Origin: an uncultured virus (IMG/VR IMGVR_UViG_3300047554_000670)
Taxonomy: Duplodnaviria; Heunggongvirae; Uroviricota; Caudoviricetes
Reading direction: 5' to 3' (one strand)
DNA: 64,000 nucleotides
Virus record (IMG/VR): IMGVR_UViG_3300047554_000670
This document shows positions 2,974 to 31,901 of this stretch, piece after piece (the first letter of the stretch is position 1; each line of letters starts with the position of its first letter). Both the position numbers and the translations under genes were made by a program. Below the pieces are notes generated by a model that did no database searches, was not told the origin of the DNA, and saw only the letters and a program-made list of their open reading frames with translations.

Positions 2974-4683
2974 ATGGCTTCTCATAAGAAACAGAAAGAA
3001 TTATTACAGAAACAACTTGAACTACAACAGCTTAGAGATTATAAGAAACAGGTACAAGCTGATAAAGAACGTTTAGCTAAAATAACTAATTATGCTAAAG
3101 CAGAGAAGTCTTTATATGAATACCATAAATTGACTTGGAATTTTCATGTACCTCAGCCTTTTATTGATAACTGGCATATTGGTGCTATATGTGAACATCT
3201 TCAAGCTCTTCACAACAGAGAGTTCCGCAATCTTATCATTAACATTCCTCCACGATTTGCTAAATCCACTATTTGTTCCATCTCATTTCCTACATGGGCT
3301 TGGATTAATAAACCTGAAGAACAGTTCATGACTACCTCATATAGTGATGATATTGTTCTAAGAGACTCCACACGTAGTCGTAGTCTTATTCAACATGAGT
3401 GGTATCAAGAAGGTTGGGGACATAGATTTGAACTACGAAAGAATGTAAATCAAAAGAGTCGATATGAGAATAACTTAGGAGGATATAGGATTGCATCTAC
3501 TATTGGTGCTGGTAAACAACTTGGAGAAGGCTATACGTGTTTGATTGTAGATGACCCTCTAAAATCTATCGAAGCATTTAATAAAGCTGCATGTAGTAAG
3601 GTCATAGATTGGTGGAAATACACTATCTCTACCCGTGCTAACACTGATAATGCGGTACGTCTGATTATTATGCAAAGACTCTCTGAGATGGACCTTGTAG
3701 AACATATATTAAAAGAAGATGCACAAGAGGAAGATTGGTATCATTTATGTCTTCCTATGCGATATGAGAAGAGACCTAAGTATGTAACAAGAAGTCCCCT
3801 TAAGTTTGTAGACCCTAGAACTGAGGAGGGAGAACTACTTTGTCCTAAGTATCAGAATGAAGCTAAGGTTCGTATCCTAGAGTCTCAACTTGGTAAATAT
3901 GGTACAGCAGCACAGTTACAACAACGTCCAGCTCCCATTGGCGGAGGATTAATTAAAGAGGATGATATCAAGTTCTATGCTCAATCCATCTCTCCCTATC
4001 AATACCCAATTCTCTTTCACTACCTTATTAGTTCTTGGGACTTTAACTTTGGTGATGAGAATCAAACCTCTAACAATTCATTCTGTGTAGGTCAAGTATG
4101 GGGATTTGGTAAAGACCAACGATACTATCTGTTACATCAGACTAAAGGACATTGGAGCTTTACGGAACAAATTGATGCTATCAAGCGTATGAATAAAATG
4201 TTTCCTCAAATCCGATATAACATAATTGAACAAATGGCTACAGGTTCTGCCGCTATTGATACTATACGTAAAGAGCTTCCTCGTCTTAATGTACAAGGGA
4301 TTAAACCTAAGGACTTTAACTGGGGTGGAAATAAACAAAATACTAAGCTACTTCGAGTTAACGCTTATCTTCCCGTATTTGAAAACAATAAAGTATGGAT
4401 TCCCTCTAAATCTATTGCACCTTGGGTTCTTGAATACGTACAAGAGTTAGTTACATTTCCAGCAAGTCAATATGATGATCAAATTGATGCAACAGTATTA
4501 GCATTAATGTGGTTTGAAAGTAAGAATCTAATGAAGGGAACTGGAATTGACATAAGTGAAGAGCTTAGAAGAACAGAACAGGAAAGACGATTCTACAATA
4601 CCCAGGACGTTAATAAAGGTAGAATTAATACAGCAACATCAATAGCCTTAAGTGCCTTTGATAAACCAAGAAATATATTTTAA
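2974..4683 (+). CDS. terL: Terminase large subunit
   Basis: Walker A-like INIPPRFAKST, Walker B LIVDDP, coupling motif IMQRL, nuclease motifs SWD and DDQIDA. Confidence 0.95.
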   Translation: MASHKKQKELLQKQLELQQLRDYKKQVQADKERLAKITNYAKAEKSLYEYHKLTWNFHVPQPFIDNWHIGAICEHLQALHNREFRNLIINIPPRFAKSTICSISFPTWAWINKPEEQFMTTSYSDDIVLRDSTRSRSLIQHEWYQEGWGHRFELRKNVNQKSRYENNLGGYRIASTIGAGKQLGEGYTCLIVDDPLKSIEAFNKAACSKVIDWWKYTISTRANTDNAVRLIIMQRLSEMDLVEHILKEDAQEEDWYHLCLPMRYEKRPKYVTRSPLKFVDPRTEEGELLCPKYQNEAKVRILESQLGKYGTAAQLQQRPAPIGGGLIKEDDIKFYAQSISPYQYPILFHYLISSWDFNFGDENQTSNNSFCVGQVWGFGKDQRYYLLHQTKGHWSFTEQIDAIKRMNKMFPQIRYNIIEQMATGSAAIDTIRKELPRLNVQGIKPKDFNWGGNKQNTKLLRVNAYLPVFENNKVWIPSKSIAPWVLEYVQELVTFPASQYDDQIDATVLALMWFESKNLMKGTGIDISEELRRTEQERRFYNTQDVNKGRINTATSIALSAFDKPRNIF

Positions 4684-4712
4684 TACCTAGATATTCTAGA
4701 AATCTATTTTAA
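4666..4712 (+). repeat. 3'-end echo of terL (PRNIF* followed by SRNLF*)
   Basis: cca aga aat ata ttt taa vs tct aga aat cta ttt taa, 29-nt offset. Confidence 0.6.
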
Positions 4713-4731
4713 CAACTAATTCATACCCATT

Positions 4732-5445
4732 ATGGTCAAAAAGAATAACGAAAGAAGAAATCAGATACTTAAAGGTGCGGGTATTGCCGCCGGGGGTATT
4801 GGGGTATTAGGAGCGGGAGCTTATGCATTAAGAAAAGGGAAGTTTGGTAAACCTAAAACCCCTCAGACACAAACATCTAACCCTAATCCTCTTACAGCAC
4901 CTCCGTCTGCTCCTAAAGCACCTAGTTCAGCCCCTCCACCTACTCCACCTAAACCACCTAAAGTTTCTAGAAAAAAGAAGAAAGCGGCAAAGAAAGCTGC
5001 CGCAAAAGCCCAAGGACTTAAATATTCTAATAACCACACAAACACTATAGACTTCAATATGTATAAACCTAAATCACGATATGTCTCTGACTATGATAAT
5101 TATGAATTTGGATTTAACCCATTTCGTAAGAAGAGTCTAATCAAAATTGCACCTATTACAGGAAAGAAAAAACTACCGGGTGCATCTAAAACTCCAATTA
5201 CAGATAATCCCATGGCAAGAATGGGGAATAGAAATAAGAGACCTAATCCCCTTGCTGCAAGTAGAGATGATGATTTGAGTAAATCTATTATTGGGCAAAG
5301 ACGTACAGCAGGAGCTAATTATTCTAAGATGAATAAAGCCCCTCAGTATAGTTCTCCTGGTGGTAGAGGTATTAATGCAGGATATGCAAAACCCCGTAAA
5401 CCTACAAATATGAATCTTAATTCTCGTATGGGACGTAAAAGATAA
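4732..5445 (+). CDS. Basic Gly-helix protein, putative cargo family
   Basis: N-terminal GAGIAAGGIGVLGAGAYAL helix, Pro-rich linker, internal IDF|N and YEF|G motifs; paralogous to the next gene. Confidence 0.65.
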   Translation: MVKKNNERRNQILKGAGIAAGGIGVLGAGAYALRKGKFGKPKTPQTQTSNPNPLTAPPSAPKAPSSAPPPTPPKPPKVSRKKKKAAKKAAAKAQGLKYSNNHTNTIDFNMYKPKSRYVSDYDNYEFGFNPFRKKSLIKIAPITGKKKLPGASKTPITDNPMARMGNRNKRPNPLAASRDDDLSKSIIGQRRTAGANYSKMNKAPQYSSPGGRGINAGYAKPRKPTNMNLNSRMGRKR

Positions 5446-5463
5446 TACTAAAAGTTAAATAAC

Positions 5464-5988
5464 ATGGCAAATAACAAAAAAGATAACAGAAAAAGAAATA
5501 TTGCTATAGGAGCATCTATAGCAGGAGGTCTAGGAGCTTTAGGTACAGGGGCTTATTTTCTTAGGAGAAAAAAACTTGGTAAAACTAAACCCACTATGCC
5601 ACCTAATAAACCCGTAAAAGCTCCCTTTGACCCTTCAGGCCCATCTATTCAACAAATAGAGTGGGCATTAGACGATGTTCTAGGCCCTGTTAGACCGGTG
5701 TACAAACCAAAGTCTATAACAATTGATGATGATATTCCTGTAGCTAGTAAAAGCCCCTCTGGTCCTAGGGTGATATCTATTGATGATGATACACCGGAGG
5801 TTACCTCATATATGAGGAAATCAAAAAAAGGTAAAGTACATAGAGTTAGTAAGAGTAAACTAAAGCGCCGACGTGAACAACAATTAGCTGTAAATAAACC
5901 CAGAGCAAAGCGGGATACACAATTCATGGGAAAAAACCAAAGCACTCTTAATTTTAATATGTATAGGCCAAATAAATTTAGATTTTAA
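5464..5988 (+). CDS. Basic Gly-helix protein, putative cargo family
   Basis: IAIGASIAGGLGALGTGAYFL helix, VTSYMRKSKKGKVHRV tag, LNF|NMYRP shared with IDF|NMYKP of the previous gene. Confidence 0.65.
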   Translation: MANNKKDNRKRNIAIGASIAGGLGALGTGAYFLRRKKLGKTKPTMPPNKPVKAPFDPSGPSIQQIEWALDDVLGPVRPVYKPKSITIDDDIPVASKSPSGPRVISIDDDTPEVTSYMRKSKKGKVHRVSKSKLKRRREQQLAVNKPRAKRDTQFMGKNQSTLNFNMYRPNKFRF

Positions 5989-6002: not shown

Positions 6003-6030
6003 AAAAACCCCACTTATTACGGTGGGGTTA
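6003..6030 (-). terminator. Intrinsic terminator between convergent genes
   Basis: AACCCCAC...GTGGGGTT stem with an A run on the left. Confidence 0.7.
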
Positions 6031-6054: not shown

Positions 6055-6103
6055 TTATTCAGCTACAGGGAATTTATGTAGATTATTCAGCGATAGGACA
6101 TTC
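6055..6103 (-). repeat. 3'-end echo of the HU gene (PIAE* followed by PVAE*)
   Basis: Minus strand cct atc gct gaa taa vs cct gta gct gaa taa, 28-nt offset. Confidence 0.65.
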
Positions 6104-6475
6104 ACCCGTAGGGCATAGTTCACTTTCTTTAGCACCATAAGGAGCTTCACCGTCATAGGTAGCAACCAAAGACTTGAAGCTGCTGTATGCACTAAAGTTA
6201 GGAACATACTTTTCAGGAACTTCAACTTTTACATTGGGATTCTGAGGGTTGTTACGCAAAGAAGCTGCACGATAACGAGCCTCAAATACACCAAACTCAT
6301 GCAGTGCTACATCATAACCATTAGCAACAGAAACTTTAATAAAATCCAGTAGTTCACCCACAATCAGAGTGGACTTTTCTTTATTAAGCTTAATACCTTG
6401 GTCAGCAAGCAATCCTTGCATATGAGTACCGAGGTCAGCTTTGGTATAGCGATAGCGTTGAGTACGTGTAGCCAT
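6083..6475 (-). CDS. hup: HU/IHF-like DNA-binding protein
   Basis: G.dV.L..FG.F..R.R.A...NPQ.....VP....P.F motif; GGAGA RBS. Confidence 0.9.
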   Translation of the reverse strand: MATRTQRYRYTKADLGTHMQGLLADQGIKLNKEKSTLIVGELLDFIKVSVANGYDVALHEFGVFEARYRAASLRNNPQNPNVKVEVPEKYVPNFSAYSSFKSLVATYDGEAPYGAKESELCPTGECPIAE

Positions 6476-6504: not shown

Positions 6505-9500
6505 GTGTGTTATTATATGGCTACCAAACATAAAAGTCAACATATAAATAGGATTATGTCAGATATTCTTTCTGATACACATAAGCTACAAGAGATAAAG
6601 AATAAAGACAAGAATAAAGTCCTTAGTTTATCTCGGAATGTAAAGAATGAGAACAGACAAGCTAGAGAAGCTAAGGAAGTAGGTAAATTCTTTGATGATA
6701 CTCTCTTTCGTTATAGCAACACAATTAGAGCTAAGATTCGTCAGCTCGTAGTTAATAGTGAGGGTAAAGACTTAGGTATTGGTAAGATACTAAGTCCTTA
6801 TCTTAAAGTTCTTTGGTATGAATGTTTACATGAAGGATTATTCTCTGTATATAAGACTAATAATACTAACAGCTATAAATCTGATAAGAACAAGAATGAC
6901 TTTAACCATTATAACAACCCTAGAGTAATTGAATTTGCAACTATAGACTTATCTGGTAGAGGTAAATCAGATGAGAATAAGCCTAAATATAGTGAGAGAC
7001 AACAGAGAATTCTAAGTAGAGCACAAAGAGATTCTGTTCCTAGAGGGGTGCAGATGTTAGCTGAGAATATTAAGGATGTTGACTCTTTATCTCCTGAAAT
7101 TCAAACTCGTATTCTTGATCATGTACAGCGTAATCCAGGTCAATATAGAGAAGGTGATTTAGATTTAATTTATGAGTCTTTTAATAGGAAGAACAAAATA
7201 CGTTTAAGAGATGCTACAAAGTCTATAGGGGAGGTTCGTACTACTAGTCCGGGGAAAAGTCAGCGTATGGGTTTTGTTCCTTCTAGTACTAAGGAAGGAC
7301 AACGTAGAATTCAGAACTTACAGGCTGAACGTGCAGACCTTAAAACTAGAATTAAAAGTACTAAATTAACGAAAGAAGAAGCAAAAGCTTTACGTGATTT
7401 AGAATCTTTATCACCGGATGCTCAAAATGCAATACGATTAAGGTATTTAGGAAGAGAAATTGATCCTAATGACCCATTATCTGTTGCATTAAATAAGTCA
7501 GAAGCTAAAGAAAATACTAAAAGACTTAAAGAAACTACACGAGAGTTACGGGATAGAGGTGTTCGTGTAGGTAATCCATTAGCAGAATCCAAGTCACCTA
7601 AGACTCCTAAGGAACCTAAAGGGGCAAAGGTAAGAACCAATACTCGTAAAGGGGATGTTGTATCAAAAGGTTTTGCTAATCAAGAATACGATGAGATTAT
7701 TGATTCTTGGGATACTTTAAGTAACTATGATAGAAGTCGAGTAATTAAGAAACTTGAAGAACAAGAAGCTATTAAAGATATTTTAGAGTCTTCTATGTCT
7801 AAGGAAGATAAAAACTTAAGCTTAAAGTTACTTCTAAATAAAGAAGCTAAGGTAGAAGATTTTCAAAACTTCCGTCCTATGGAAATTCCTGATTCCATAA
7901 GTAATTGGATTGAAGAAAATGCTACTCGTAGAAAAGCTTACATGGAAGGGTATAGGCAGAATTTACAACTAAAGGTATCTCCTAGTGGTAAAATTCCTGA
8001 AGATTATTTCACTGCTAGGTCTAATACTTTACTTCCTAAGTCTGAAAAAGCTACGAAAGAAGAAATTAAAACAATATTAGCAAATAAGAAACTAACAGAT
8101 AAAGAAAAAGTCATTGCTATTGATAGACTTACTGGTCCAGGTAAGAATAGAACTGTAAGACGACAAGTTATTGGATATATTAAAGAGAGAGAAGGTTTTA
8201 CTTTAGATAGTTTAGTTAATACAGTTCATACAGCTAGACTTGGTGAAGATAGAGCTTATCAAGGAGTTAATCTTAGAGATAGATTAAAATCTTTACTTTC
8301 GTTGTCCCCTAAAAATATCCCATCTGGTAGTAGACCAGGTACATTAGCTAGAGGTACTGAAGTTGATATAAGAGAACGTATACGAGATATCGAAACATAT
8401 TATCCTTATTTGACAGGTAAGTATGATGCTGCTCAGTATATGGAAGCTCGTACTCTAGAACTTAGTAACTATTATGAGGAAGAGTTTAAGAACGGAATTA
8501 AAACTCGGATAGCTGAACTATATAAGAATAAAGATATTACTCCATCACAGAGAAAGAAACTAATCTCTGAAATGATTTCTCAAGTAGAAACAGGTACACA
8601 ACCTTTAAGTAAAGCTGATTCATCTCTTATTACTAGGTTAAGAGAATCATTTAATAAAGAAAGAGTAAAACCCTCTAAAGACCAAAGTACAAAGCTTGAT
8701 CGAATTGAAGATGAAGCTCGTAAGATATGGGTACGTAAACAAAGAATTGAATCTTTAATTGCCATACTTCAACAACCCCGTAATCCTTCAGCTACACCTG
8801 AAGAAGCTAAAGCCTATAATAATAAGAAATTAAAAGCTGTTAAAGAACTATCGGCTGAATTTGGAATTGAAGTTCCAAGAAATGACAAAGGCAATATCTC
8901 TATTAGTGGATTAAATCCAAGTATAGATAAATTTTATAAAGAAATGGAAGCCTTAGGAATTACTTCGGGAATTAAAGGTACAGATTTTATTGGTAAATAT
9001 ACTAAGACTAAAGGTAAAGTTAAGCCTAAGGATGTAGTTCCCGTAGATTCTCTTCCACCTGATTTAGTGGAAGAACTTAAGGTTAGAGGTTTACTTAGAA
9101 GAGGTAAAGGTTCAACAGGTTATCAAGAAACTATATCTCAACAAACTGTAAACACTATAGCTAAGAAGATTAGGACTGAACATGAACGTACTCAGAATAG
9201 ATATACTGGGGTTAACCCTATTGTTGTAGAAGAGCATAAGTCTTTACAGGAAGCACGTAGACAATATAAGACTTTACAAGAAACCTATAGAACTAGAACA
9301 GCTAGAGGGATAAGTGCTAAGAAACCTCCTTCCTTACAGGAACTCTATATACAAACCCATAGAGCTAGATTAGGAAGAGAACTTAGACCTGATGAGGTAT
9401 TAAGTGAAGCTGAGATGAATAACTTAGATAATTTAGTTGTTAATCCTTATCAACGTCTCGATAGAATTCTTAACAATGAAATTACTACAGCTTATAACTT

Positions 9501-11738: not shown

Positions 11739-12713
11739 ATGCTAATTAAATTTAAGAAAAGCTCAGAAGGCTTACAGCTAGCTGGTCCAGCATTAATCTT
11801 TGTAGAAGGAAATCACGTTGATAGTAAGAAACGTGCTCATTCCTTTGGTCCTGATCGTATTCGTAAGATTGTAGAAAATACGAATATGTTTATGCGAAAA
11901 GGAGGTCGTGTTCCTTTTCAATCAGACCATCAGAAAACACAACAATTTAATTTAGGTGATGTTGAAGGTGAATTTTACTGTTGTCCAATTGACGAAAGTA
12001 ATCTCCCTGACCCTAAGTACAAGCATTTAATTGGTAAGTTGGGCGTATTTGTAGATCGTCTAGTAGCTAAAGGTACAGATGCTGTCAAAGCAATTAAGGA
12101 GGGAAAGATTCGTACTTTATCTCCCGGTATTGACCCTGTGACAGAAGCTTTTGTAGAAGTATCCGCTACTCCAATTCCCGCTATTATTGGCCCTAGTATT
12201 ATGTTCAGTAGAGATGGAACTGATTACGAAGCTGATAATATTTTGTTGTTCGAGTCATCTTCTCTAAATCCTCGTCCTAGCGCGAGTTATGAAGGTGATG
12301 ATGAGGATGATTATCAAGGTAATATCTCTCCCGCTATGAGTCGTAAAACTAAAGTGTTCTCTATGGAGGAAGCTTTAGGACGTAGTGAGAATATTAAGCA
12401 GATTAAGACCAAGTATGATGAGTTATCTGAAGCTCTTTATCGTGTTCTTTGTTCTTATTATTCTGCTGAGGAGGAAGAGTTACAAGGTAGAGACCCTGTA
12501 AAAGAAAGTTATAACAATATTGAATATTTTGTTAAAGAAATTGAAGGTTTGTTTGAGCTTACTTTTAAGGAAGAAGAACAACAAGAAGATGCAGAAATGC
12601 CTGAATCTCCTGGGGCCAAAGCATCACAACAACCTCAAGCTAATTATTCTCGTTATGATGGTTTGAGCTATAATCCAAATAGATTGTTTAGACGACGCAA
12701 ATATGACTATTGA
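11739..12713 (+). CDS. Prohead protease (Mu gpI / P2 gpO-like)
   Basis: VPFQSDH...GDV...IKEGKIRTLSPGID...EVSATPIPAI pattern; position upstream of scaffold and capsid genes. Confidence 0.75.
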   Translation: MLIKFKKSSEGLQLAGPALIFVEGNHVDSKKRAHSFGPDRIRKIVENTNMFMRKGGRVPFQSDHQKTQQFNLGDVEGEFYCCPIDESNLPDPKYKHLIGKLGVFVDRLVAKGTDAVKAIKEGKIRTLSPGIDPVTEAFVEVSATPIPAIIGPSIMFSRDGTDYEADNILLFESSSLNPRPSASYEGDDEDDYQGNISPAMSRKTKVFSMEEALGRSENIKQIKTKYDELSEALYRVLCSYYSAEEEELQGRDPVKESYNNIEYFVKEIEGLFELTFKEEEQQEDAEMPESPGAKASQQPQANYSRYDGLSYNPNRLFRRRKYDY

Positions 12714-13662: not shown

Positions 13663-13685
13663 TATCCACTCATTTAATCATTCCT

Positions 13686-15873: not shown

Positions 15874-16329
15874 ATGATTATGGCTAAAGTATTTTTGAAG
15901 AAAGATTATATCTCTAAAGGAGGTAATTTCTATGGTGCAGGATATTATGAACAAGAGTCTTTACCTGAAGTAATTAGAGATAATTCTGATTACATTAAGA
16001 TTACTGAAGTAGTTGTATCTAAGGAGCCTCTAGTAGAAAACGGTATTCGTACTATTACTTCTGATGATGGTCCTCGTACTCGTGAGATTAAGCCTATTAT
16101 TGGTGAACCAGTAAAGAGTGATATTGTTAAGGAAGAACCATTTATTAATATTAATGTTGCTTCCGAAGTAGAACTAAGTAGTCTTAAAGGTATTGGACGT
16201 TCTACAGCTAAGAAAGTAATTGAACTTCGTGAAGTTTCTCCCTTCGTTAGCTTTAGTGATTTAGAAGAGAGAGTAGGATTATGGGGTGGAAGAACTTGGG
16301 ATAGTTATAACATTAAGTTTGAATCCTAA
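15874..16329 (+). CDS. Protein with C-terminal helix-hairpin-helix (ComEA-like) DNA-binding domain
   Basis: ININVASEVELSSLKGIGRSTAKKVIELR...FVSFSDL. Confidence 0.85.
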   Translation: MIMAKVFLKKDYISKGGNFYGAGYYEQESLPEVIRDNSDYIKITEVVVSKEPLVENGIRTITSDDGPRTREIKPIIGEPVKSDIVKEEPFININVASEVELSSLKGIGRSTAKKVIELREVSPFVSFSDLEERVGLWGGRTWDSYNIKFES

Positions 16330-16383
16330 CCATCTAATATCAAATTTGAATCCTAACTATAAGGTATTAAATTTGAGTTCTAA
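16306..16383 (+). repeat. 3'-end echo array x3, 27-nt period (NIKFES*, NIKFES*, GIKFEF*)
   Basis: aac att aag ttt gaa tcc taa / aat atc aaa ttt gaa tcc taa / ggt att aaa ttt gag ttc taa. Confidence 0.9.
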
Positions 16384-16402: not shown

Positions 16403-16726
16403 ATGACCTATTCTTGGCTAAAGTTTTCTTTCGTTAATCAAACGCAAGGTGATTCTTTCCCTCTTAACTCCCCTCTTATCTATTGTATTGTTGAAAATCC
16501 AAATAATACAGTAACAACTCTTGATATACAAGTTCAGCCTGATAAAGATACCCCTAATTACTGGGTAACACTTAAGACTATTGATATTGATGGTACAGCT
16601 AATCAGGTTATTAATTCTGATACCTTAGCTGATATTTCAGGTGCTGTAGGTCCAGCTAGTGTTTTTAGGTTTGTATTTGCTAATAGCATTACCGCAACCC
16701 TCTATTTCAACGCCTATAGATATTAA
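16403..16726 (+). CDS. Hypothetical virion protein
   Basis: 107-aa beta-rich ORF with AAGGA RBS. Confidence 0.7.
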   Translation: MTYSWLKFSFVNQTQGDSFPLNSPLIYCIVENPNNTVTTLDIQVQPDKDTPNYWVTLKTIDIDGTANQVINSDTLADISGAVGPASVFRFVFANSITATLYFNAYRY

Positions 16727-16798
16727 TATTTTAATGCTTATAGATATTAGTATTTTAATGCTTATCAATATTAGTATAATAACGCTTATTGTTATTAG
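16703..16798 (+). repeat. 3'-end echo array x4, 24-nt period (YFNAYRY*, YFNAYRY*, YFNAYQY*, YNNAYCY*)
   Basis: Exact 24-nt register; the first echo differs only at third codon positions. Confidence 0.95.
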
Positions 16799-18423: not shown

Positions 18424-18924
18424 ATGAGTGAAGAATTTGAACTTTTAAGAAAAACCTTACTACAGCAAGTAGAGGAGACTATTGTTGCTAGAGGAGATGA
18501 TGCTCCTAATCTAGACCGTCTTTTTGCTTATCGTGCTGCACTATTAAATACCACAGGTAACACAGAGCAAACAGATGCTCAGACCGCTCAGTTTGCCTCT
18601 CTAGCGAACGAAATTCTGCTTCAGGTAGAATCCCTCCAACCAAACAATAGAGGCACCTTTACGAACCTCTCAGGACGTGTTGGTAAAGCTCGTGAGTCAC
18701 AACTACTGGCACCTGCAAACCCAAATCGTGTAATGCTAATTATTCAGAATCGGTCTCTGAATCCTCTGTTTATCGAATTTGGTGCTCCAGCTACCACAAC
18801 TATGTCGTTAGGAATCGATATGGGAGAGAGTTTTAAGCTTGATACGGTAATTGATACTCGTGAGATTAACATTACATCCTCTGTTAGCAATACACCCTAT
18901 GTAGCGATTGAAATAAGTGCATAA
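18424..18924 (+). CDS. Structural protein with small C-terminal beta-sandwich
   Basis: LLAPANPNRVMLIIQNRSLNPLFIEFG pattern common in phage virion proteins. Confidence 0.65.
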   Translation: MSEEFELLRKTLLQQVEETIVARGDDAPNLDRLFAYRAALLNTTGNTEQTDAQTAQFASLANEILLQVESLQPNNRGTFTNLSGRVGKARESQLLAPANPNRVMLIIQNRSLNPLFIEFGAPATTTMSLGIDMGESFKLDTVIDTREINITSSVSNTPYVAIEISA

Positions 18925-19007
18925 TGTAGCTATCGAAATAATGGCATAAGTATATAGAGTTATTGTGATAAGTGCCTAATCCGTACATAGCTGTATAAGG
19001 TGCATAA
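18895..19007 (+). repeat. 3'-end echo array x4 (VAIEISA*, VAIEIMA*, RVIVISA*, PYIAV*GA*)
   Basis: Offsets 25, 30 and 28 nt; every copy ends gcN taa. Confidence 0.85.
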
Positions 19008-23042: not shown

Positions 23043-23047
23043 CAATA

Positions 23048-23890
23048 ATGAATATTTATCTAAAATCATACCCTCTTATTCAGTTTAATAAGAAACAAGA
23101 GGAGAAAGTAAAAGGAGCACTGCAAATAGGAGCTGGCGGCTATATTGCAAAACAATCTATTAGTTCTGGGGTTCCAAGAGCACTAGGGGTTAGAATAGAG
23201 TCCCATACGACATCTAGATCTAAAGCAAAAAAGATATTGTCCGAAAATGGTTTTCTAGACCCTAAGTACGGGGGGACGGGGGCGGCAGTAGGAGCGGGGC
23301 CGGACTTTGTAAAAAGAAGTACTGGGTATGTTCATATTACGGGGGTACATGAAGGACATTATGGGAAACGTATACCTGAACAATTAGCCCCATTTGCCCC
23401 CTTATATAGAGCTATCCAAAGACGCATATATAAAACCTCTGCGGATAACCCTTCATTAAAAGGAATAGAGATTGCTGCTAATATAATTGGGCCTAAAAGA
23501 AATGCTAGAACCTTATATGTTGGGGGAAGTGATAAATATTTTTATGAAAATTTTGAACCCGACCCAGACGACTTAGCTATTAAGTCAAAGAAACCCATAA
23601 AAGTTCACCCTAGTAAGCTAGCTGCTACACTAGATACTTTGAACAGAGAAGGTGGAGGAAATAAATGGAAAGGGGCACGTAAATTAATGAAGGCAAATCC
23701 TAAAAGAGTAGGAGTTGGTTTAGCAATACTTGCTGGAGGAGGATTAGCCGCAAAAAGAGCTATTAGCTTAGGGGTCTCTAATATAAAAGGGGAATCGGGG
23801 TATAGGCCAAAAGGAAGGGTTAAATCTCACTTCAGAAAGTTAAGAAACAAAATGATTAGAGTTAAAAGTTTTATTAGAGGTGAAGGTTAG
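23048..23890 (+). CDS. Cargo-family protein with ADP-ribosyltransferase-like motif
   Basis: LIQF|NKK; HTTS...ILSENGFLDP...GYVHIT; Gly helix; C-terminal VKSHFRKLRNKMIRVKSFIRGE. Confidence 0.55.
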   Translation: MNIYLKSYPLIQFNKKQEEKVKGALQIGAGGYIAKQSISSGVPRALGVRIESHTTSRSKAKKILSENGFLDPKYGGTGAAVGAGPDFVKRSTGYVHITGVHEGHYGKRIPEQLAPFAPLYRAIQRRIYKTSADNPSLKGIEIAANIIGPKRNARTLYVGGSDKYFYENFEPDPDDLAIKSKKPIKVHPSKLAATLDTLNREGGGNKWKGARKLMKANPKRVGVGLAILAGGGLAAKRAISLGVSNIKGESGYRPKGRVKSHFRKLRNKMIRVKSFIRGEG

Positions 23891-23928
23891 AATTGTACAA
23901 TGGATTTATATAATTATTTATCATCGTT

Positions 23929-25809
23929 ATGGCTAAACGTGGGATGGCAATGGGTGCCGTAAATAAACTTAATATTGGTGCCGGTAGAAAAGCTGGATTG
24001 AGCCTTAATGGTAAAGGTCTTGGTACTTCCCCGTTTAGTCAATCTTCTTCTGGAGCGTCTAAATCAGTTCGTAAAGTTAACAGTGAAATTAAAAGTAAGT
24101 TAGCAAAACGAAAGAAAAAGGGAATGCTTAATATGGGAATGCAGACCGGTAAGCGTAAACCTGGAATGCAGACCAATAAAGAACAGACTATCCCCACAAT
24201 TAGTAAGGAACAACGTAGAGTAATGGAAACACAAAGAGCTAAAAAGAGACTGGGTAGAAGATTATCTAATTATTCTTTCGTTCCAACTATTAGTGTTGGA
24301 CTAATTGAATTTAAGAAGGAAGAAGAGAAGAAGAAAAAAAGAGACCTTAGTAAGATTACTGGAATGGCTCAGATTGGTGCAGGAGCAACTATAGGTCAAC
24401 AAGCTATTCGTTCAGGTTTACCTAGAGCCGTAGGTGTACGTTTAGAACAACATGGTACATCGCGTGCTGCGGCTAAGAATATTATTAAAGAAGGCTATTT
24501 AGACCCTAGTTATGGGGGTTCTACTGGTGGTGTTACTGCATCAATGAAACTGCCTAAAGAATTTCTTGAAAGGGCTAAAGGACATACTTTTCTAAGTGGT
24601 AAAAACCCAAGTCACCCATTTTGGCAAGAAAGAAATAGGCTAAGTCCCGTATGGGATGTGGTAAATAGAAAGATTCAAGTTTTGGGTTATAGAGGGTCTA
24701 AGGCGGGAAAAATTACGGATGCGGATATAGAAAGAGGGTCACGCCATATTTCTGGGATTGTTAGTCAGATGTTACGGCCTATAGAAAAAAACTTAAAAGA
24801 TCTAACCCCTGAATCCTACCTAGCTAAGGTCAGAGCAGGTACTAATTTTTCTGACCCTAATGATGTAAGATACCTTGAATCTCTAGAAAACGACCCTAAA
24901 CGCTTAAGAGAAGCGGTTGACTATTATAGAGATGATTTTCTTAACTTATCTAAGCAAATAAAGAAGATGGGTAAACGAGGCTACAATGATGCCGCTCGTG
25001 TTGAAAGAATTCGTAGAATTCAAAAACGGGCCAATATGTTGTTTAAGCCCTATCAAGACGAATTTAAGACCAGAATTGAACCTATAAAAAGCAAAGGTAA
25101 TTGGATTCATAATTCAGAGGGTAAACCTTTAGTTAGCTTAACTTATAAAGAAGAACTTCGTGATTTCCTAAGAGAGAAAGCTAACGCAGGGGATAAACGG
25201 GCGGCACAAATACTTGGGTTACAGAGTGGCCTCGACGACCAACTTCGTTCTCAAAGAGCAGCTAAAATGATTGGTCTAACCGCAGGATGGACTGAAAAGT
25301 TAGTTAAGTCACCCGCATTAGGTGCCGCCGGAGTTGGTAGAACCTTATATATCCCTGGAACAGATGCCTTCTTTAATGATACAAGTAGGTTTGTATACGA
25401 CCCAGATGACCCATTTGGAAACCCTCTAAAAATGGGTAAAGCCATGGAGTCTGAACTGGGTGGTTTTGGTGGAAATGCTCTTAAGACTAAACAGAAAGTA
25501 AGAGCTTTTGGTAATAGGGCCGCAGCATCTAAATGGTTGCTTGAACAAGAAGGGGATGGAAATATCTTTAAGGGGGCCGGTAAGTTAATGAAAGCAAATC
25601 CGGGTAGAGTTGGTGCTGGGTTAGCTTTATTAGCTGGGGGTGGATTAGCTTCTGGTGCCCTTATTGGTAAAGGAGTTTCTAATATACGAAAGAAACCTGA
25701 AGTTACAGTTGAATCCGATGGTAAAGTTAAATCTCACTTTAGAAAACTAAAGAACAAGATGATTAGAGTTAAGAGCTTCATCAGAGGGGAACGTAATGAA
25801 AAAAGGTAG
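23929..25809 (+). CDS. Cargo-family polyprotein-like paralogue of 23048..23890 with ART-like motif
   Basis: Internal VGLIEF|KK; HGTSRAAAKNIIKEGYLDP...GHTFLS; same C-terminal helix and tag. Confidence 0.6.
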   Translation: MAKRGMAMGAVNKLNIGAGRKAGLSLNGKGLGTSPFSQSSSGASKSVRKVNSEIKSKLAKRKKKGMLNMGMQTGKRKPGMQTNKEQTIPTISKEQRRVMETQRAKKRLGRRLSNYSFVPTISVGLIEFKKEEEKKKKRDLSKITGMAQIGAGATIGQQAIRSGLPRAVGVRLEQHGTSRAAAKNIIKEGYLDPSYGGSTGGVTASMKLPKEFLERAKGHTFLSGKNPSHPFWQERNRLSPVWDVVNRKIQVLGYRGSKAGKITDADIERGSRHISGIVSQMLRPIEKNLKDLTPESYLAKVRAGTNFSDPNDVRYLESLENDPKRLREAVDYYRDDFLNLSKQIKKMGKRGYNDAARVERIRRIQKRANMLFKPYQDEFKTRIEPIKSKGNWIHNSEGKPLVSLTYKEELRDFLREKANAGDKRAAQILGLQSGLDDQLRSQRAAKMIGLTAGWTEKLVKSPALGAAGVGRTLYIPGTDAFFNDTSRFVYDPDDPFGNPLKMGKAMESELGGFGGNALKTKQKVRAFGNRAAASKWLLEQEGDGNIFKGAGKLMKANPGRVGAGLALLAGGGLASGALIGKGVSNIRKKPEVTVESDGKVKSHFRKLKNKMIRVKSFIRGERNEKR

Positions 25810-26749
25810 ACGACATACTAAAGAAACTAAAAGAAAGATTTCTGAATCAATGAAAAAAAGGGTTAGTCTTCATCATCATATGGCTAAGGGTTCTTTAATT
25901 GGTGCTGGGACTGGAGCTACTTTACAAGGTATCCCGGCTGCTTTAATTGGTACGCATATTGGTGGTCCTATGCTTGGTATCCCCTTAACTATTAGTGCTA
26001 TGGGAAGAGGGGCTATTGAAGGTGGAACATTAGGGGGTATTGCCGGAGCGGGTACATACTATGCTAAGAGAAAATTCGATACTAAGAATAGAGCTAGGTA
26101 TGAATACAAGAAAGATTTGTCTGTATATGATTTCACTAAGAAAGAGCTAATACCTTATAATTTTGCTAAGAAAGAACAAAAAGTAAAATCACATACTAGA
26201 AGGACTAAGAGGGGAACCACGATTGTTAATCCTTTCGTTAGAGTTAAACGCTATTTTAACCCTGAACCGGCTAAAGGAAGTATCTATACTGCACCATTTA
26301 GATATGCGGCTTTATCTGCTCAAGCATCTAAAGGTAAATTTCAGAATTTAATTAAAGACACTCCTAATCCTAAAGAAGCAACTGAACGTTTAGGTGCAAC
26401 AATCGGGGTGGGTCTAGGAAGACTCGATACATTACGAAAGAAAATTAGAGATAGAGGGAAAGACTTTACAAGAGGTATTAAGCTCGGTCGTAGAAGTGAG
26501 GGTGTACGAGATACTTTTGAACGGCACCGTTTAGGTGAGAATATTGGAGTAGTTGGGGGTCTTTATGCTGCTTCTAGAGGTCTTAAAGGTACAGGGATTA
26601 AGACAGCTTTAGTACAACCTAGTTCAGGCTTAGTTTGGGATGACCAATTTAGAAAAGCATCTAAAGGTAAGAAAGCTTTGATTGTTGGTGGAGGACTAGT
26701 TGCTGCTAGTCAGATAGCAAGAATTACAAATAGATATCTACAAGACTAA
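25796..26749 (+). CDS. Two-unit cargo-family protein (NUMOD3-like + Gly zipper; VKSH tag + Gly helices)
   Basis: GRRHTKETKRKISESMK; GxxxGxxxG zipper; YNF|AKKEQKVKSHTRRTKRG. Confidence 0.65.
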   Translation: MKKGRRHTKETKRKISESMKKRVSLHHHMAKGSLIGAGTGATLQGIPAALIGTHIGGPMLGIPLTISAMGRGAIEGGTLGGIAGAGTYYAKRKFDTKNRARYEYKKDLSVYDFTKKELIPYNFAKKEQKVKSHTRRTKRGTTIVNPFVRVKRYFNPEPAKGSIYTAPFRYAALSAQASKGKFQNLIKDTPNPKEATERLGATIGVGLGRLDTLRKKIRDRGKDFTRGIKLGRRSEGVRDTFERHRLGENIGVVGGLYAASRGLKGTGIKTALVQPSSGLVWDDQFRKASKGKKALIVGGGLVAASQIARITNRYLQD

Positions 26750-26758
26750 TAAAAAATC

Positions 26759-27508
26759 ATGACAAATAAAAATTATAGACACTCAGAAGAAACTAAGCGT
26801 AAGATCAGTAGAGCCTTAAAAGGTAAAAAGCGTAAACGTAATAATAGTTTAGCTATTGGGGGTGGTGCTACAGCCATTGCCGGTACAGGACTAGCTGTTG
26901 GCTCAAATCTCCAAGCTAAAAACTTAGAAAAATCAATTGGTCAATACAATAATGATTTAGCTAAAGTTGCTCGTGAACTAAAGCATAGACAAAAAGGACT
27001 AGCTAGAGGTCAGGATAAAGCTTATAGTTTAATGCAAGAAACTTTTAGTACTGAATTAGACCCTAAGTATGATTCTTTGTCTAAAGCTATGCAGAAGAAT
27101 AGAGAAAGAGCTATTGAACTAGAACAGGAACTTAATGCTAAGGGAAAAGTTAAACTCCCTAAAGTGTTAGGGGGTAAGAAAAGAAAAGAACTTGATTCTC
27201 TGACAACTCAATTAGACCAACAACAACAAGAGTTAAAAGTATATAAAAGACAACTAAAAGCAAAAGCGGATAAAGCGGAAAAGTTTTTAACTCGTCTTTA
27301 TCCTCAAGGAACAGATAAGATTAAGGCCCGTATTAGCGCTTTAGAAAATAGTCAAAGTAACTTACAATCTTCTATTGGTAAAGCACAAAAAGGAATTAAA
27401 CGTCTTGGAAAATTAGCGGTTGTAGGTAAAGGGTTAGCTGCTACAGGGGCATTAACTGCGGCTACTGCAATGGCATTAAAAGCTCGTAATAGAAAGAAAC
27501 GTAGATAA
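26759..27508 (+). CDS. Cargo-family protein: NUMOD3-like, Gly helix, coiled coil, Gly helix
   Basis: YRHSEETKRKISRALKGKK; two Gly/Ala helices flank a coiled coil. Confidence 0.65.
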   Translation: MTNKNYRHSEETKRKISRALKGKKRKRNNSLAIGGGATAIAGTGLAVGSNLQAKNLEKSIGQYNNDLAKVARELKHRQKGLARGQDKAYSLMQETFSTELDPKYDSLSKAMQKNRERAIELEQELNAKGKVKLPKVLGGKKRKELDSLTTQLDQQQQELKVYKRQLKAKADKAEKFLTRLYPQGTDKIKARISALENSQSNLQSSIGKAQKGIKRLGKLAVVGKGLAATGALTAATAMALKARNRKKRR

Positions 27509-27525
27509 TCAATGAGGCAAAGATA

Positions 27526-28287
27526 GTGATTAATTTTGAGAAAGAGTCAAATGTAAAATCTTATTTTCGTAATGGCAAACGTGTAAAGGGGCATAAACGA
27601 AAAAGAGTTAGAGATTTAGGGGCTGATGCAGCTTATCGTAATGCCGCTGTAACAGGTGCAAGTTTAGGTCTTGTCAGTAGCTCCTTACAGTTAAGTGCTA
27701 AAAACATTATGCGTAAAGCTAATGAAAAAAGCAAAGTTACTTTTGAAGATATTATTGAGAATCCTGAAAAATTAAAACGATTTAAGGTGGAATTAGCTAA
27801 TTACCCCGCTAGAACAGAACAAGAGGTTAGAGGTAAAAACTTCTTATTACCCAGATTAGAAAAATTAATTAAAGAACAAGATGAGTTAGCTCAATTAGAG
27901 AAAGCCTTTAATCCTGAAGAAACCTTAGGTAAAGAGATTAAAGATAAAATTACTTCTATTGAAAATAGGTCTGATTGGACTCCCGAACAAAAGAATAAAG
28001 CTATTAGCACACTTAGGGCTAAGAATGAACGCCCAGGTAAGTTAGCACTATACGACAAAGAGGTTGCTAGAAAAGCACCTAATGTTTGGCAATACAGATG
28101 GAGAAAGTTCCGCTATCCTCAAAAATTAGAAGCTTTATTCCCTAAGAAGTTAACAGGAAGAAGAATTACTGGTGTTTTAGCGGGAGGAGCTGCTATTAAT
28201 GCTGCAACTAACATACTAGCACTTAAAGGGGTTAGAGAACTAAGAAAGGCTGCTTTTAGAAGAAAGATGAGGAAATTAAAAAGATGA
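27526..28287 (+). CDS. Cargo-family protein
   Basis: MINF|EKESNVKSYFRNGKRVKGHKR; two Gly/Ala helices. Confidence 0.65.
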   Translation: MINFEKESNVKSYFRNGKRVKGHKRKRVRDLGADAAYRNAAVTGASLGLVSSSLQLSAKNIMRKANEKSKVTFEDIIENPEKLKRFKVELANYPARTEQEVRGKNFLLPRLEKLIKEQDELAQLEKAFNPEETLGKEIKDKITSIENRSDWTPEQKNKAISTLRAKNERPGKLALYDKEVARKAPNVWQYRWRKFRYPQKLEALFPKKLTGRRITGVLAGGAAINAATNILALKGVRELRKAAFRRKMRKLKR

Positions 28288-28871
28288 GTCTAGAAGTAGA
28301 GATAAAGATTGATGAAGTAGCTGAAAAGATACAAGAATCTTTTGAGAAACAAGTTGAGAGGCTAGATAAGATAGATGAAATCGAACCTCTCTTTCGTTCT
28401 GTCATGAATTATGACCTTAAGAAGCGTTTTGAATCATCTCCTCCTACAGCTAGTGGGGGTATTGTTTATGGTCAACAGTATTGGCGACAATTATCAGATG
28501 CTTATTTATTAGCTAAACCAGAAAGAGCTAACGGAACTATACATAAGGACTCTATGGCTCTAATGCAAAGTCTAACTGAACCACAACATCCAGAACAAGT
28601 TAGTACTATAACTCCAGAAGGATATTATCAATACGGTACAGATATACCTTATGCGGATAAATTACAGAAACAACTTAAGCGTCCCCTAGTCTTTACGCAT
28701 GAAACTCTAAATACACAGCTATCCAATATCGTTAGTCTTTACCTTCTTAGCTCTAAGGATGTAGATGAAATAGAGTTAGAGTTAACTGATATTAGAATAG
28801 AAGGTATGGGATTTGCTACAGCTAAGAATAATGAAATGCTAGAGCAAATACTTAAGGATGAGAAAAAATAA
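28284..28871 (+). CDS. Virion morphogenesis / tail-completion protein (Mu gpG-like)
   Basis: WRQLSDAYL..K...LMQSL...YGTDIPYA..LQ....RPLV. Confidence 0.7.
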   Translation: MSLEVEIKIDEVAEKIQESFEKQVERLDKIDEIEPLFRSVMNYDLKKRFESSPPTASGGIVYGQQYWRQLSDAYLLAKPERANGTIHKDSMALMQSLTEPQHPEQVSTITPEGYYQYGTDIPYADKLQKQLKRPLVFTHETLNTQLSNIVSLYLLSSKDVDEIELELTDIRIEGMGFATAKNNEMLEQILKDEKK

Positions 28872-28883
28872 CGGATTTTAATT

Positions 28884-29393
28884 ATGTCTACAATACTTGG
28901 AAACCACGAATATTGTTATAGATTAGGGTTATATCTAAAGGATTTTCTTAATAAAGAATACGTTAAGGAGAGAACTAAGAATACCGAACTAAGCGAAGGC
29001 ACTATTGTTAAGACAGTTAAGAACTATGACTCTATTGTTAATAACTTAGCTGAGTTTCCTTTGCTTAAGCTTTATAGAACTCAAGACCAATTTAAGAAGG
29101 GTACTAACTTTAGAATTAGCACCATAACATTAACTTATTCGCTATCTCATCCTGATTTAAGTAATGACCAACAAGCAGTCCTACCAGACCTTATCTATTG
29201 GGTTGGATATAAAATTAATGAAGGACTAAGACATTGGGACTTAGAGGTTAAAGGTGATTTTTATAAAATGAATGACGATACCTTTTCTATGAGTTATATG
29301 CTTAATGCTTCTGAAATACTAAATACTGTATATCCGTTTATTCGGTGTAGCTTTAGAGTTAGAGACCACTATATGATATGTCAACAAAAGTAA
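28884..29393 (+). CDS. Putative tail terminator
   Basis: Size, FPLLKLYR motif and position between the gpG-like gene and the tube gene. Confidence 0.45.
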   Translation: MSTILGNHEYCYRLGLYLKDFLNKEYVKERTKNTELSEGTIVKTVKNYDSIVNNLAEFPLLKLYRTQDQFKKGTNFRISTITLTYSLSHPDLSNDQQAVLPDLIYWVGYKINEGLRHWDLEVKGDFYKMNDDTFSMSYMLNASEILNTVYPFIRCSFRVRDHYMICQQK

Positions 29394-29419
29394 TATATGT
29401 GATATGTCAGCAAAAATAA
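29370..29419 (+). repeat. 3'-end echo (YMICQQK* followed by YVICQQK*)
   Basis: tat atg ata tgt caa caa aag taa / tat gtg ata tgt cag caa aaa taa, 26-nt offset. Confidence 0.9.
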
Positions 29420-29434
29420 TAAATAATATGGGTT

Positions 29435-29923
29435 ATGAATAAGAAGAAAATTGGTTTAGTGCTTAAGGAATTTAGAGAAGGTAAGCTTAAGAGTTCTGCT
29501 GGTAGAAAGGTTACTAAAAAGAAACAAGCTTTAGCTATTGCATTGTCTGAAGCTAGACAAGATAAGTTTAGTCAAGCCGCATATAATCTCTTGGAATTTG
29601 CTCGTACTAGAGGTTCTAGAGATAAGAAACCTCGTAGAAGACGTAAGGTTAGAGAAAGTCATCAAGAGTTACATAATGTAGCCGCAAGTAATGCTAAGAC
29701 ATTTGGTGCTACTGGAGCAGGATTAAGCTTAGTGGATAAACAAGTTAGAGAGACCGCATTAAAAGCCCCTAGTCAACTTGGAGGAGCTATTAAAGGAGCA
29801 TTATCAAGAGCACCTCGTTATGCTGTTAAAGATGCTGTAACTGCTGCGGGTATTGGTGTAGGACTTGAAGGATTAAGAAGAGTAAGAAATAAGATTAGAG
29901 ACCTAAAGAATAATAAGAGATAA
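29435..29923 (+). CDS. Cargo-family protein with N-terminal DUF6496-like motif
   Basis: EFREGKLKSSAGRKVTKKKQALAIALSEAR; LLEF|ARTRGSRDKKPRRR; Gly helices. Confidence 0.65.
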   Translation: MNKKKIGLVLKEFREGKLKSSAGRKVTKKKQALAIALSEARQDKFSQAAYNLLEFARTRGSRDKKPRRRRKVRESHQELHNVAASNAKTFGATGAGLSLVDKQVRETALKAPSQLGGAIKGALSRAPRYAVKDAVTAAGIGVGLEGLRRVRNKIRDLKNNKR

Positions 29924-29936
29924 GGTAAATAGTAAG

Positions 29937-30404
29937 ATGGATTTCTGGCCAATAGTAAGAACAATTAAAGATTATAAAGGACTTAAGAATAAGATACCCG
30001 TTAGGTCTAAAGTTCCCGTTCGTATTTATACACAACGAAAGGGAAAGACTGATTTTATTGGATTAATTGAGTTACATAAAAGACTAAGCAATATTGAATT
30101 AAGTAAAAAACTAGATAGTATTGAATTTTCTCAACCTGATAAGAAAAGAACTCACAGTATAGCTGGTGTAGGGGCTATAGCTGCTGGAGGAGCAAATGTC
30201 TGGAGTGGGGCAATGCTAGCGGGTGGTAAAAGAGCACCTTATACTAAGAATCCTACAATTTCACCTACTAAACTTGGTAGACATCAACTACGTGCTGGTA
30301 TGGGAATTGCTGCTACTGGTATGTACCTACAACACCGTAGAAATAGAAAGTTGAGAAAACAAGGTTATAAACCTACAAGTACATTAATGAGTACAAGAAA
30401 ATGA
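29937..30404 (+). CDS. Cargo-family protein
   Basis: Internal FIGLIELHK and SIEF|S; two Gly helices. Confidence 0.6.
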   Translation: MDFWPIVRTIKDYKGLKNKIPVRSKVPVRIYTQRKGKTDFIGLIELHKRLSNIELSKKLDSIEFSQPDKKRTHSIAGVGAIAAGGANVWSGAMLAGGKRAPYTKNPTISPTKLGRHQLRAGMGIAATGMYLQHRRNRKLRKQGYKPTSTLMSTRK

Positions 30405-30769
30405 TTGGATTGATTGAACTTCATAAACAGTCTTCTTTAACACCTCATACCTCATCTTTCGTTAACTTTGCAAGAACTCTTGGCGCTAAGGATAAGAAAC
30501 CTCGTAAACGTAAACATTATGGTGTTTGGTTTGAAGGTAGACGTACGGCTATTCTTCCTGGACCTACAGAATCTAAAGCAGGAGCTATAGAAAAGGCTCG
30601 TGCTAAGATGAAAAGAGGTGGCGATAAAGCTAGAGTTAGAGAACTAACTAAGCAAGAAATAAGAACAGCAAATACTGGTAGATGGGTTCGTACGGGGTAT
30701 AACCATGAAAAACCTGGCTATGAAGGTATGAGAGGATATGGGCCTAAACCTAAATCTTATGAGAAATAA
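30401..30769 (+). CDS. 'MIGLIEL' family basic protein
   Basis: MIGLIELHK...FVNF|ARTLGAKDKKPRKRK. Confidence 0.7.
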   Translation: MIGLIELHKQSSLTPHTSSFVNFARTLGAKDKKPRKRKHYGVWFEGRRTAILPGPTESKAGAIEKARAKMKRGGDKARVRELTKQEIRTANTGRWVRTGYNHEKPGYEGMRGYGPKPKSYEK

Positions 30770-30824
30770 GACAAATCAATCATCCAATCTATAATAAAAA
30801 TGTAACTTCATATATTAAATCAAT

Positions 30825-31037
30825 ATGACTACAACTCAAAAACCTGTAGAGGTTAAAATACTATGTCTTATGATTGGTCCTTCTGGCCGATTGTATAATA
30901 AAGGAGAGTATAAAATTGAAGACCTTAACGAAGAGGATGTTGATTTTATTCTGTCTAAACAATCTAGAGTCACCAAATGGAGTGATACCACGGTAAAGAG
31001 TGTGGTATCTACTACTAAAATTTCAACTGAGGTTTAA
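30825..31037 (+). CDS. Small hypothetical protein upstream of the tail tube gene
   Basis: 70-aa ORF in operon context. Confidence 0.6.
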   Translation: MTTTQKPVEVKILCLMIGPSGRLYNKGEYKIEDLNEEDVDFILSKQSRVTKWSDTTVKSVVSTTKISTEV

Positions 31038-31042
31038 TTCTA

Positions 31043-31849
31043 ATGTCGATTTCTATTCTTAACCGTACTTATGTAGGGTGTTCTTATCTTTCTATTACTC
31101 GTGTAAGTGACGGTGTAGTTTACTCTTTTCCTGCTCCTACAGGATTTAACATTGCAACTAACTTGACGTTGCGTGAACAAATGGGTACTAATACTCTGGG
31201 TCGTAAAGTTCGTACTGGTTCCTATAGTACGGGTGAAACTCCTGAGCTTACCGTTAGCTTTGAGTACATGTCTCCTGAACTGATTGCATTCAGTATTGGT
31301 AACGAGTTGGTTAGTGGTACGTTCAGTACTCATTATCCTAAAGTTGTTACTGTTACAGGTGCGGCTATTGCGGGTGATACCGCTGTTGGTGGTATTCTCA
31401 ATGGTCTTACCGCTGATGTATCCGCTGTTGCTTCCTATGTCAAAGATGGTATTTCCATTAACTTGACTCGTCAACCCTACGCTACCTTCACGGGTACTTC
31501 TCCTGCTAATGATGATTCCTTTGCTATTGGGGCTAATGGTGCATTGAAGTTCAGCGATAACTTGGTTTCTGCTGAAGCTGTGGTTGTACTGAAGATTCCC
31601 GTCAGTGTCACTGGTGTTAAGATTTCTGAAGTGTTGGTTGGCCAGCTTAAGATTCAAGCTGCTTTGATTAATACTTTGAACGAAGTTACTATCTTTGAAG
31701 CTAATAACGTTCAAGTTAATACTCAAGGTAAGACCTTTGATATGAGCGGTGAAGGTTCTGTTGAAGTATCATTCTTCCTTAACAACCCGCCTGGTGAATG
31801 TAAATCTTGGAACATCTACGGTACAGATAGCCTAGTAAGTTGTATTTAA
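31043..31849 (+). CDS. Major tail (tube) protein
   Basis: Position before chaperones and TMP, beta-rich, same strong codon bias as the MCP, followed by a terminator. Confidence 0.75.
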   Translation: MSISILNRTYVGCSYLSITRVSDGVVYSFPAPTGFNIATNLTLREQMGTNTLGRKVRTGSYSTGETPELTVSFEYMSPELIAFSIGNELVSGTFSTHYPKVVTVTGAAIAGDTAVGGILNGLTADVSAVASYVKDGISINLTRQPYATFTGTSPANDDSFAIGANGALKFSDNLVSAEAVVVLKIPVSVTGVKISEVLVGQLKIQAALINTLNEVTIFEANNVQVNTQGKTFDMSGEGSVEVSFFLNNPPGECKSWNIYGTDSLVSCI

Positions 31850-31901
31850 GATATAACTTGGTAAGCTGTATTTAAGGTATAGCTTAGTGAACTGTATCTA
31901 A
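31826..31901 (+). repeat. 3'-end echo array x3, 26-nt period (DSLVSCI*, YNLVSCI*, YSLVNCI*)
   Basis: gat agc cta gta agt tgt att taa / tat aac ttg gta agc tgt att taa / tat agc tta gtg aac tgt atc taa. Confidence 0.9.

Follow-up and report, generated by a model that had tools for sequence, protein, structure and literature searches.

In this study, the ends of genes were investigated in a 64,000-nt stretch of DNA (hereafter, the window) from the uncultured tailed virus recorded in IMG/VR as IMGVR_UViG_3300047554_000670, and we observed that downstream of seven genes, located on both strands, the last 15-25 nt of the gene together with the stop codon recur in one to three worn, head-to-tail copies. 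These copies are called echoes here, and the functional gene end in front of them is called the live end. The window is part of a tailed phage of about 136 kb, whose habitat labels are freshwater metagenomes, and it is AT-rich, with a GC content of 33-41% across most of its length. The genes concerned are those of TerL, an HU-like protein, a helix-hairpin-helix (HhH) protein and a putative tail tube protein, as well as the genes 16403-16726, 18424-18924 and 28884-29393, referred to below by their first coordinates (Table 1). With moderate confidence, we regard these as locus-specific, minisatellite-like tandem arrays produced by short duplications of 24-29 nt that straddle the stop codon, and most likely they have no function of their own. 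This reading is based on the excess of repeats at gene ends, the filtering of repeats by reading frame, the change of copy number among strains, the constant periods and the locus-specific sequence of the units.

An earlier interpretation made from the letters of the window (the sequence-only reading) had named echoes at these seven sites, and tandem, diverged copies were confirmed at each of them by reading and alignment. The best lags give periods of 29, 28, 27, 24, 25, 26 and 26 nt for the terL, HU, HhH, 16403, 18424, 28884 and tube arrays, respectively, and five of the seven arrays were called independently by Tandem Repeats Finder, with periods of 27, 24, 25, 26 and 26 nt and 2.0-4.0 copies. 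The proposed unit length of 24-30 nt agrees with these periods, apart from the terL echo, which comprises only 15 nt with one mismatch and whose likeness extends about 5 nt beyond the stop. Spacers between copies measure 0-9 nt in six arrays and 14 nt at terL. The change of TAA to TAG, which was said to occur sometimes, was found in the 16403 array, where the live unit ends in TAA and all three echoes in TAG, and at no other site. In all four multi-copy arrays, the distal copies are more decayed, as had been described. Within an array the period is constant (24/24/24, 27/27 and 26/26), and for this reason amplification of one unit fits better than separate installations.

Each unit carries its own stop, and five of the seven periods are not multiples of three, the periods of 27 and 24 nt being the exceptions, so that the repeats do not prolong the reading frame of the gene. 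These two features exclude a programmed extension of the gene by read-through or frameshifting. The mean similarity of units across sites was 10.4, compared with 10.5 for shuffled units; thus, no motif is common to the units of different genes, which makes a common binding site unlikely. The sequence-only reading was therefore right in describing the arrays as gene-specific, present on both strands, mostly frame-breaking and not explained by read-through.

The lag scan disclosed 29 direct-repeat clusters in the window, compared with 1.6 +/- 1.1 in 20 Markov shuffles. When the last 30 nt of each gene were aligned to the next 150 nt and scored against 200 shuffles, nine of the 67 gene ends surpassed all the shuffles, and seven of these nine are the tandem arrays. 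The other two flagged ends, those of genes 19676-20302 and 28284-28871, were dropped as echoes since they represent gapped matches inside the following gene, and the weaker scores of other gene ends are due to exact words of 9-10 nt without tandem structure. Comparatively few hits were obtained from the controls, namely gene starts against their upstream DNA (2/65), interior positions (5/400) and gene ends against their own upstream DNA (2/67), and the difference between gene ends and interior positions is significant (Fisher p = 1.7e-5). Such repeats are thus far more frequent at gene ends than at the control positions.

By the same test, four unrelated phages had 7 of 281 gene ends flagged (p = 8e-4 for the comparison with the window), and distant relatives had 1 of 116. 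In two relatives with 68% TerL identity, represented by contigs of 24.8 and 17.5 kb, 2 of 44 ends were flagged and both are doubtful: one resulted from a mistaken open reading frame (ORF) call, and a weak repeat of 15 nt accounts for the other. Among the relatives (68% for TerL and about 50% for the tube protein), no echo was found after the terL or tube gene, and the tube genes of the relatives at about 50% identity run straight into a terminator. Because the controls, the unrelated phages and the relatives all score far lower, the excess of arrays at gene ends is real and specific to the lineage of the window. DNA and protein searches of phage collections returned either no match or only distant TerL matches. 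The public viral record nearest to the window, a piece of 44.7 kb, has the same sequence and therefore provides no information on variation, and protein searches with the 16403 and 18424 products recovered their own 90% clusters only, with no more distant relatives. Keyword searches of the open-access literature yielded no description of stop-spanning tandem copies in phage genomes, by which absence is not proven.

Several other short repeats were noticed during the analysis. A possible small eighth echo lies at 62273-62306 on the minus strand, where the last 12 nt of gene 62295-62489, including its TAG, recur 22 nt downstream with one mismatch (shuffle p = 0.06). Two short tandem repeats on the same strand, at 61044-61094 and 56869-56902, each run across a stop and the start of the following ORF; one, of about 27 nt, copies the first codons of a 47-codon ORF, and the other, of 15 nt, overlaps the stop and the next start. 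At 42670-42705, a perfect 8-nt repeat, ATAAAGGT, occurs in 4.5 copies from 3 nt past the tape-measure stop to the start region of the next gene, and it is rich in Shine-Dalgarno-like AAGG. Outside the window, in the unrelated freshwater cyanophage Pseudanabaena phage Pam2 (L034, 42728-42800), the tail fibre gene has one rearranged echo, of roughly its last 30 nt, after its end.

The sequence-only reading had itself raised the concern that the arrays could be an assembly artefact from merged strains, and this is now extremely improbable. Related strains do occur in the sample and the units resemble allelic variants; however, the run that is the probable source was also assembled independently with a different assembler, and two long contigs of that assembly (18,029 and 28,719 nt) cover positions 12001-32000 letter for letter, with 0 differences and a word depth of about 27-30x. 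The five arrays within this interval are reproduced exactly, the terL and HU sites lying outside it. The public viral contig is likewise identical, contigs of other samples and studies carry the units in different numbers, and the units are set apart by unique spacers and become increasingly decayed with distance from the gene.

Strain variation was examined in short contigs from two other studies (three runs), in which most of the aligned pieces are 90-99% alike. Copy number differs between strain-level relatives at two of the five arrays compared, 16403 and 18424, so that the check for copy-number variation suggested by the sequence-only reading had a positive result. At the 16403 array, one strain contig joins position 16707 to 16780, which leaves out 72 nt, or exactly three units, and 68 nt are skipped in a second strain run. 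Judging from the joint rather than from the letters of the contig, the first of these strains appears to end the gene with the third and most distal echo type of the window, its TAG stop included. At the 18424 array, 56 nt are missing from one strain, in which 20 other letters resembling a worn unit are present, and another strain possesses 29 extra letters, interpretable as a further unit: the seven encoded residues and the stop are unchanged, and the two differences are silent. The HhH, 28884 and tube arrays (gene ends at 16329, 29393 and 31849) showed no strain joint, but it is uncertain how far the strain contigs cover these sites. For the HU-like protein, three strain variants agree in the first 126 residues; their differences are confined to the last four (codons 6083-6094 of the window), the part that the repeat unit spans, and the probability that both variable sites would fall there by chance is about 0.0007. 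The HU echo of the window encodes valine, which is the live residue in one of these variants. This valine, together with the apparent distal-type live end at 16403 in one strain, suggests that echo and live copies are interchangeable. The expectation that echoes would match the live ends of related phages is supported to that extent, and it failed for the tube homologues at 66-68% identity, whose C-terminal residues are similar but show no match to the echoes.

Two further observations were made on the strain contigs. Over 18730-19342, comparison with one strain showed 19 differences in the 195 nt upstream of the 18424 array and 7 in the 362 nt downstream, which may mark a recombination boundary. 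Within gene 12703-13590, joints that go back on themselves were listed in two strain runs at an acidic GAA/GAT repeat (13039-13076); they are unreliable, with many unrelated low-complexity contigs piling up at this place.

With respect to reading frame, the lag is a multiple of three in 15 of the 18 in-gene repeat clusters compared with two of the seven stop-spanning arrays (Fisher p = 0.017). In-gene tandem repeats also have unit sizes like those of the gene-end arrays, as in the cases of 10198-10287 (27 nt, 3.3 copies), 30066-30127 (27 nt, 2.3 copies) and 21055-21095 (21 nt, 2 copies). The frame bias and the similar unit sizes are expected from a general process of small duplication that is filtered by the reading frame. 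We infer that the arrays began with a short duplication across the stop codon of a gene, which would be harmless, as the first copy would still close the gene and the surplus copies would lie in non-coding DNA, and that an in-gene duplication of similar kind would persist only at lengths divisible by three. Once two copies existed, replication slippage or unequal homologous recombination could gain or lose units, either within a single genome or between co-infecting strains. A contraction could fuse the body of the gene to a downstream unit and so create a new live end, in which case echoes would occasionally come under selection. The synonymous appearance of the differences would derive mainly from the live copy, in which only silent change is tolerated, and secondarily from exchange between live and echo copies.

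In the seven arrays, 23 differences were counted between the live end and the first echo, and these fall on codon positions 1, 2 and 3 in the numbers 4, 3 and 16; there are 17 transitions and 6 transversions, in both directions. At the level of codons, 13 of 19 differences are synonymous and 6 are non-synonymous, so the statement that the differences are mostly synonymous proved correct. The conclusion drawn from it in the sequence-only reading, that a non-coding copy should drift evenly and that each echo was therefore probably once live, was not supported. Against a flat one-third null, the third-position share would be highly significant (p = 4e-4), but this is the wrong null, because the live gene end in each compared pair tolerates silent change only. 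In a simulation in which both copies mutated equally and only the live copy was under constraint, a third-position share of 0.38-0.45 was expected and 0.70 observed (p = 0.015 against the upper value), and a synonymous share of 0.27-0.46 was expected and 0.68 observed (p = 0.04 against the upper value). With the extra 18424 unit of the other strain included, these values become p = 0.006 and 0.017, respectively. In the 16403 array, the four differences between the live end and echo 1 are common to echo 2 and partly to echo 3, and parsimony thus places them on the live copy. Between neighbouring echoes, the differences by codon position are 4, 9 and 12, which is near random (p = 0.09). The direction of change is balanced (by manual count, about 8-9 to A/T and 7 to G/C), so decay of the echoes toward A/T cannot explain the third-position excess. 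The best reading of these data is that the synonymous signal comes mostly from the live copy and that the remainder is compatible with live and echo copies being exchanged now and then.

The sequence-only reading had proposed instead that the arrays are an ordered record of allele replacements. On that account, either recombination in a shifted register with co-infecting relatives or a stop-anchored template switch directionally installs a foreign allele of the last eight or so codons plus stop, and the resident end is pushed downstream as a once-live allele. We consider this rather unlikely but worth weighing, as a number of observations are in its favour: third-position (16/23) and synonymous codon (13/19) differences of the first echo from the live end are more numerous than the constrained-live-copy null predicts, the additional 18424 unit of one strain preserves its seven residues and stop with only silent differences, the 16707-16780 joint implies a distal echo type as live end, the HU echo valine is live in a strain variant, and the shift of divergence across the 18424 array resembles a recombination boundary. 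However, the period of each array is constant, as amplification of a single unit would leave it, the differences between echoes are near random, and the silent changes at 16403 are assigned to the live copy by the differences that the echoes have in common. The single-unit strain would be explained equally well by a deletion from the live unit to echo 3, and the strain evidence consists of a few short contigs. A reverse transcriptase, a single-strand annealing recombinase and an integrase had been suggested as agents to look for, but none was found among the ORFs of the 64-kb window, of which 67 were compared with PHROGs and 58 with Pfam. A bolder form, in which a stop-anchored process (a template switch at a hairpin presenting the stop, or out-of-register recombination between strains) stacks once-live gene ends and so maintains a pool of working C-termini, is in our view unlikely.

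Some observations weigh against a minisatellite origin, and the main one is the position of the arrays. With the echoes removed, there are 1297-1393 sites at which a duplication of 24-29 nt would be wholly intergenic and 675-780 at which it would span a stop, a ratio of about 1.8 to 1, and yet all seven arrays with periods of 24-29 nt span a stop. By our own arithmetic, the probability of this is about 0.35^7 = 6e-4, a figure that is overstated insofar as long spacers hold promoters and terminators. The 3' edge of the unit lies 0-5 nt past the stop in five of the seven arrays, closer than a uniform boundary would give, although in three of them a short ancestral spacer could force this. Stop anchoring thus exceeds what neutral space predicts; it is the main point that small duplications leave unexplained, and it keeps directional replacement alive as a reading. 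In addition, the excess of third-position and synonymous differences stays modestly significant with the live copy constrained, and inspection by eye of the flanks of the 16403 array revealed no microhomology above 1-3 nt, in arrays that are strongly diverged. The lack of a convincing echo among the 44 genes of the relatives with 68% TerL identity also means that a lineage-specific rise in rate, itself unexplained, is needed.

A role as functional elements, either at the 3' end of the mRNA or in translation termination, was also considered, whereby the arrays would provide stop-codon hairpins, repeats for termination, stability or processing, or back-up stops. In the tube array (31833-31888), the stop codon makes up the 3-nt loop of an 11-bp hairpin in each of the first two units (z = -3.9 and -3.75; none of 200 shuffles as good), and between the units one U-A pair has become C-G, with both sides changed; no such fold is formed by the third unit. 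For the 28884 array, too, folding exceeds that of its shuffles (z = -3.1), frame-breaking periods place stops in several frames, and the tube and HU arrays lie between the stop and the true terminator. Nevertheless, folding is not out of the ordinary in the other five arrays (z = -0.5 to -1.8), the AT-rich spacers already contain stops in all frames, and a two-sided change in a quasi-palindrome is possible by templated mutation without selection. The lack of a motif common to different genes, the unstable copy number among close strains and the tube genes of relatives at about 50% identity, which have no echo and a terminator directly after the gene, argue in the same direction. No terminator-like site (a GC-rich hairpin plus T run) was found inside any of the seven arrays, and since a separate intrinsic terminator follows the tube array (Table 1), that array is not itself the terminator. 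A functional role of this kind is accordingly very unlikely.

Among known systems, the closest kind is the variable-number tandem repeat (VNTR), or minisatellite, arising from short tandem duplication. As in the VNTRs of the intergenic DNA of bacteria and large viruses, the arrays have head-to-tail units of constant period and locus-specific sequence, their copy number varies among close genomes, and their outer units decay. A 2005 study of a bacterial genome in PNAS reportedly found many non-coding tandem repeats with strain-variable copies that enlarged intergenic DNA, mostly with longer units. Unlike VNTRs, the present arrays begin about 15-25 nt inside the coding sequence and include the stop, so that one unit is a working gene end, and their units are few (2-4) and already diverged. 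In fission yeast, microhomology-mediated tandem duplications are short, frequent and easily reverting, and in coding DNA they survive mostly if the frame is kept (PMC8639346). They are alike in being short, tandem and frame-filtered, whereas the arrays of this study are fixed, diverged, multi-copy and concentrated at stops. Diversity-generating retroelements also display a repeat of the gene 3' end just downstream; they were rejected, as the units here are about 25 nt compared with about 100 nt or more, no reverse transcriptase was found in the window, and the differences (17 transitions and 6 transversions, with all four kinds of transition) are not adenine-specific. Integrative elements replace the 3' end of their target gene, with att sites at the ends of tRNA or protein genes, and similarly leave a displaced, slightly different gene end downstream of the functional one. 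This was discarded as well, since no element lies between the copies, the window holds no integrase and the repeats have constant periods.

As regards the setting, most of the genes listed in Table 1 were named through PHROGs and Pfam. The tube gene was left unnamed by both, and is assigned putatively because it precedes an overlapping gene pair and the tape-measure gene and has well-conserved homologues. That pair (32045-32802) consists of two overlapping ORFs in different frames and stands at the usual position of the frameshift pair of tail assembly chaperones. At 62464-63999 on the minus strand, three neighbouring ORFs match one DNA methyltransferase family; two of them correspond to successive parts of the profile with an 8-nt overlap, suggesting a split or frameshifted copy beside an intact one.

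Table 1. Gene-end arrays, annotated genes and terminators in the 64,000-nt window
Feature	Position	Strand	Details
terL array	4669..4712	+	live unit closes at 4683 (stop codon 4681-4683); 14-nt spacer; echo at 4698-4712; period 29
HU-like array	6055..6102	-	live 6083-6102; echo 6055-6074, 16/20 matching; period 28
HhH array	16308..16383	+	live to 16329; echo 1 16335-16356; echo 2 16358-16383; period 27
Gene 16403-16726 array	16703..16798	+	four units of exactly 24 nt: live 16703-16726, three echoes 16727-16798
Gene 18424-18924 array	18897..19007	+	echoes 18925-18949 and 18951-18979; remnant 18995-19007; period 25, then ~29
Gene 28884-29393 array	29370..29419	+	live to 29393; one echo 29396-29419; period 26
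Tail tube array	31827..31901	+	live to 31849; echoes 31853-31875 and 31879-31901; period 26
terL	2974-4683	+	PHROG phrog_38
HU-like DNA-binding protein	6083-6475	-	130 residues; Bac_DNA_binding
MuF-like giant protein	6505-11685		PHROGs/Pfam
Major head protein	14630-15739		PHROGs/Pfam
HhH gene	15874-16329	+	HHH_3
Tail tube, putative	31043-31849	+	gene order and conserved homologue family
Tape measure	33236-42667		3143 residues; PHROGs/Pfam
Mu-type portal	54967-56370		PHROGs/Pfam
Bidirectional terminator hairpin	6006-6029		after HU-like array
Intrinsic terminator	31949..31978	+	downstream of tube array, separate feature

If stop anchoring reflects a real mechanism, it would link gene boundaries with errors of recombination or replication, and to our knowledge no such link has been described. 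The arrays can be used as strain markers, and they are a trap for gene callers and for assembly from mixed strains. If the arrays are ordinary minisatellite-like products of small duplications, they would show a compact phage genome in the course of growing new intergenic DNA, and they would make visible how selection filters a frequent process of small duplication, with gene ends as the visible hot spots. In that case, C-terminal residues, such as those of the HU-like protein, could vary faster than the remaining protein.

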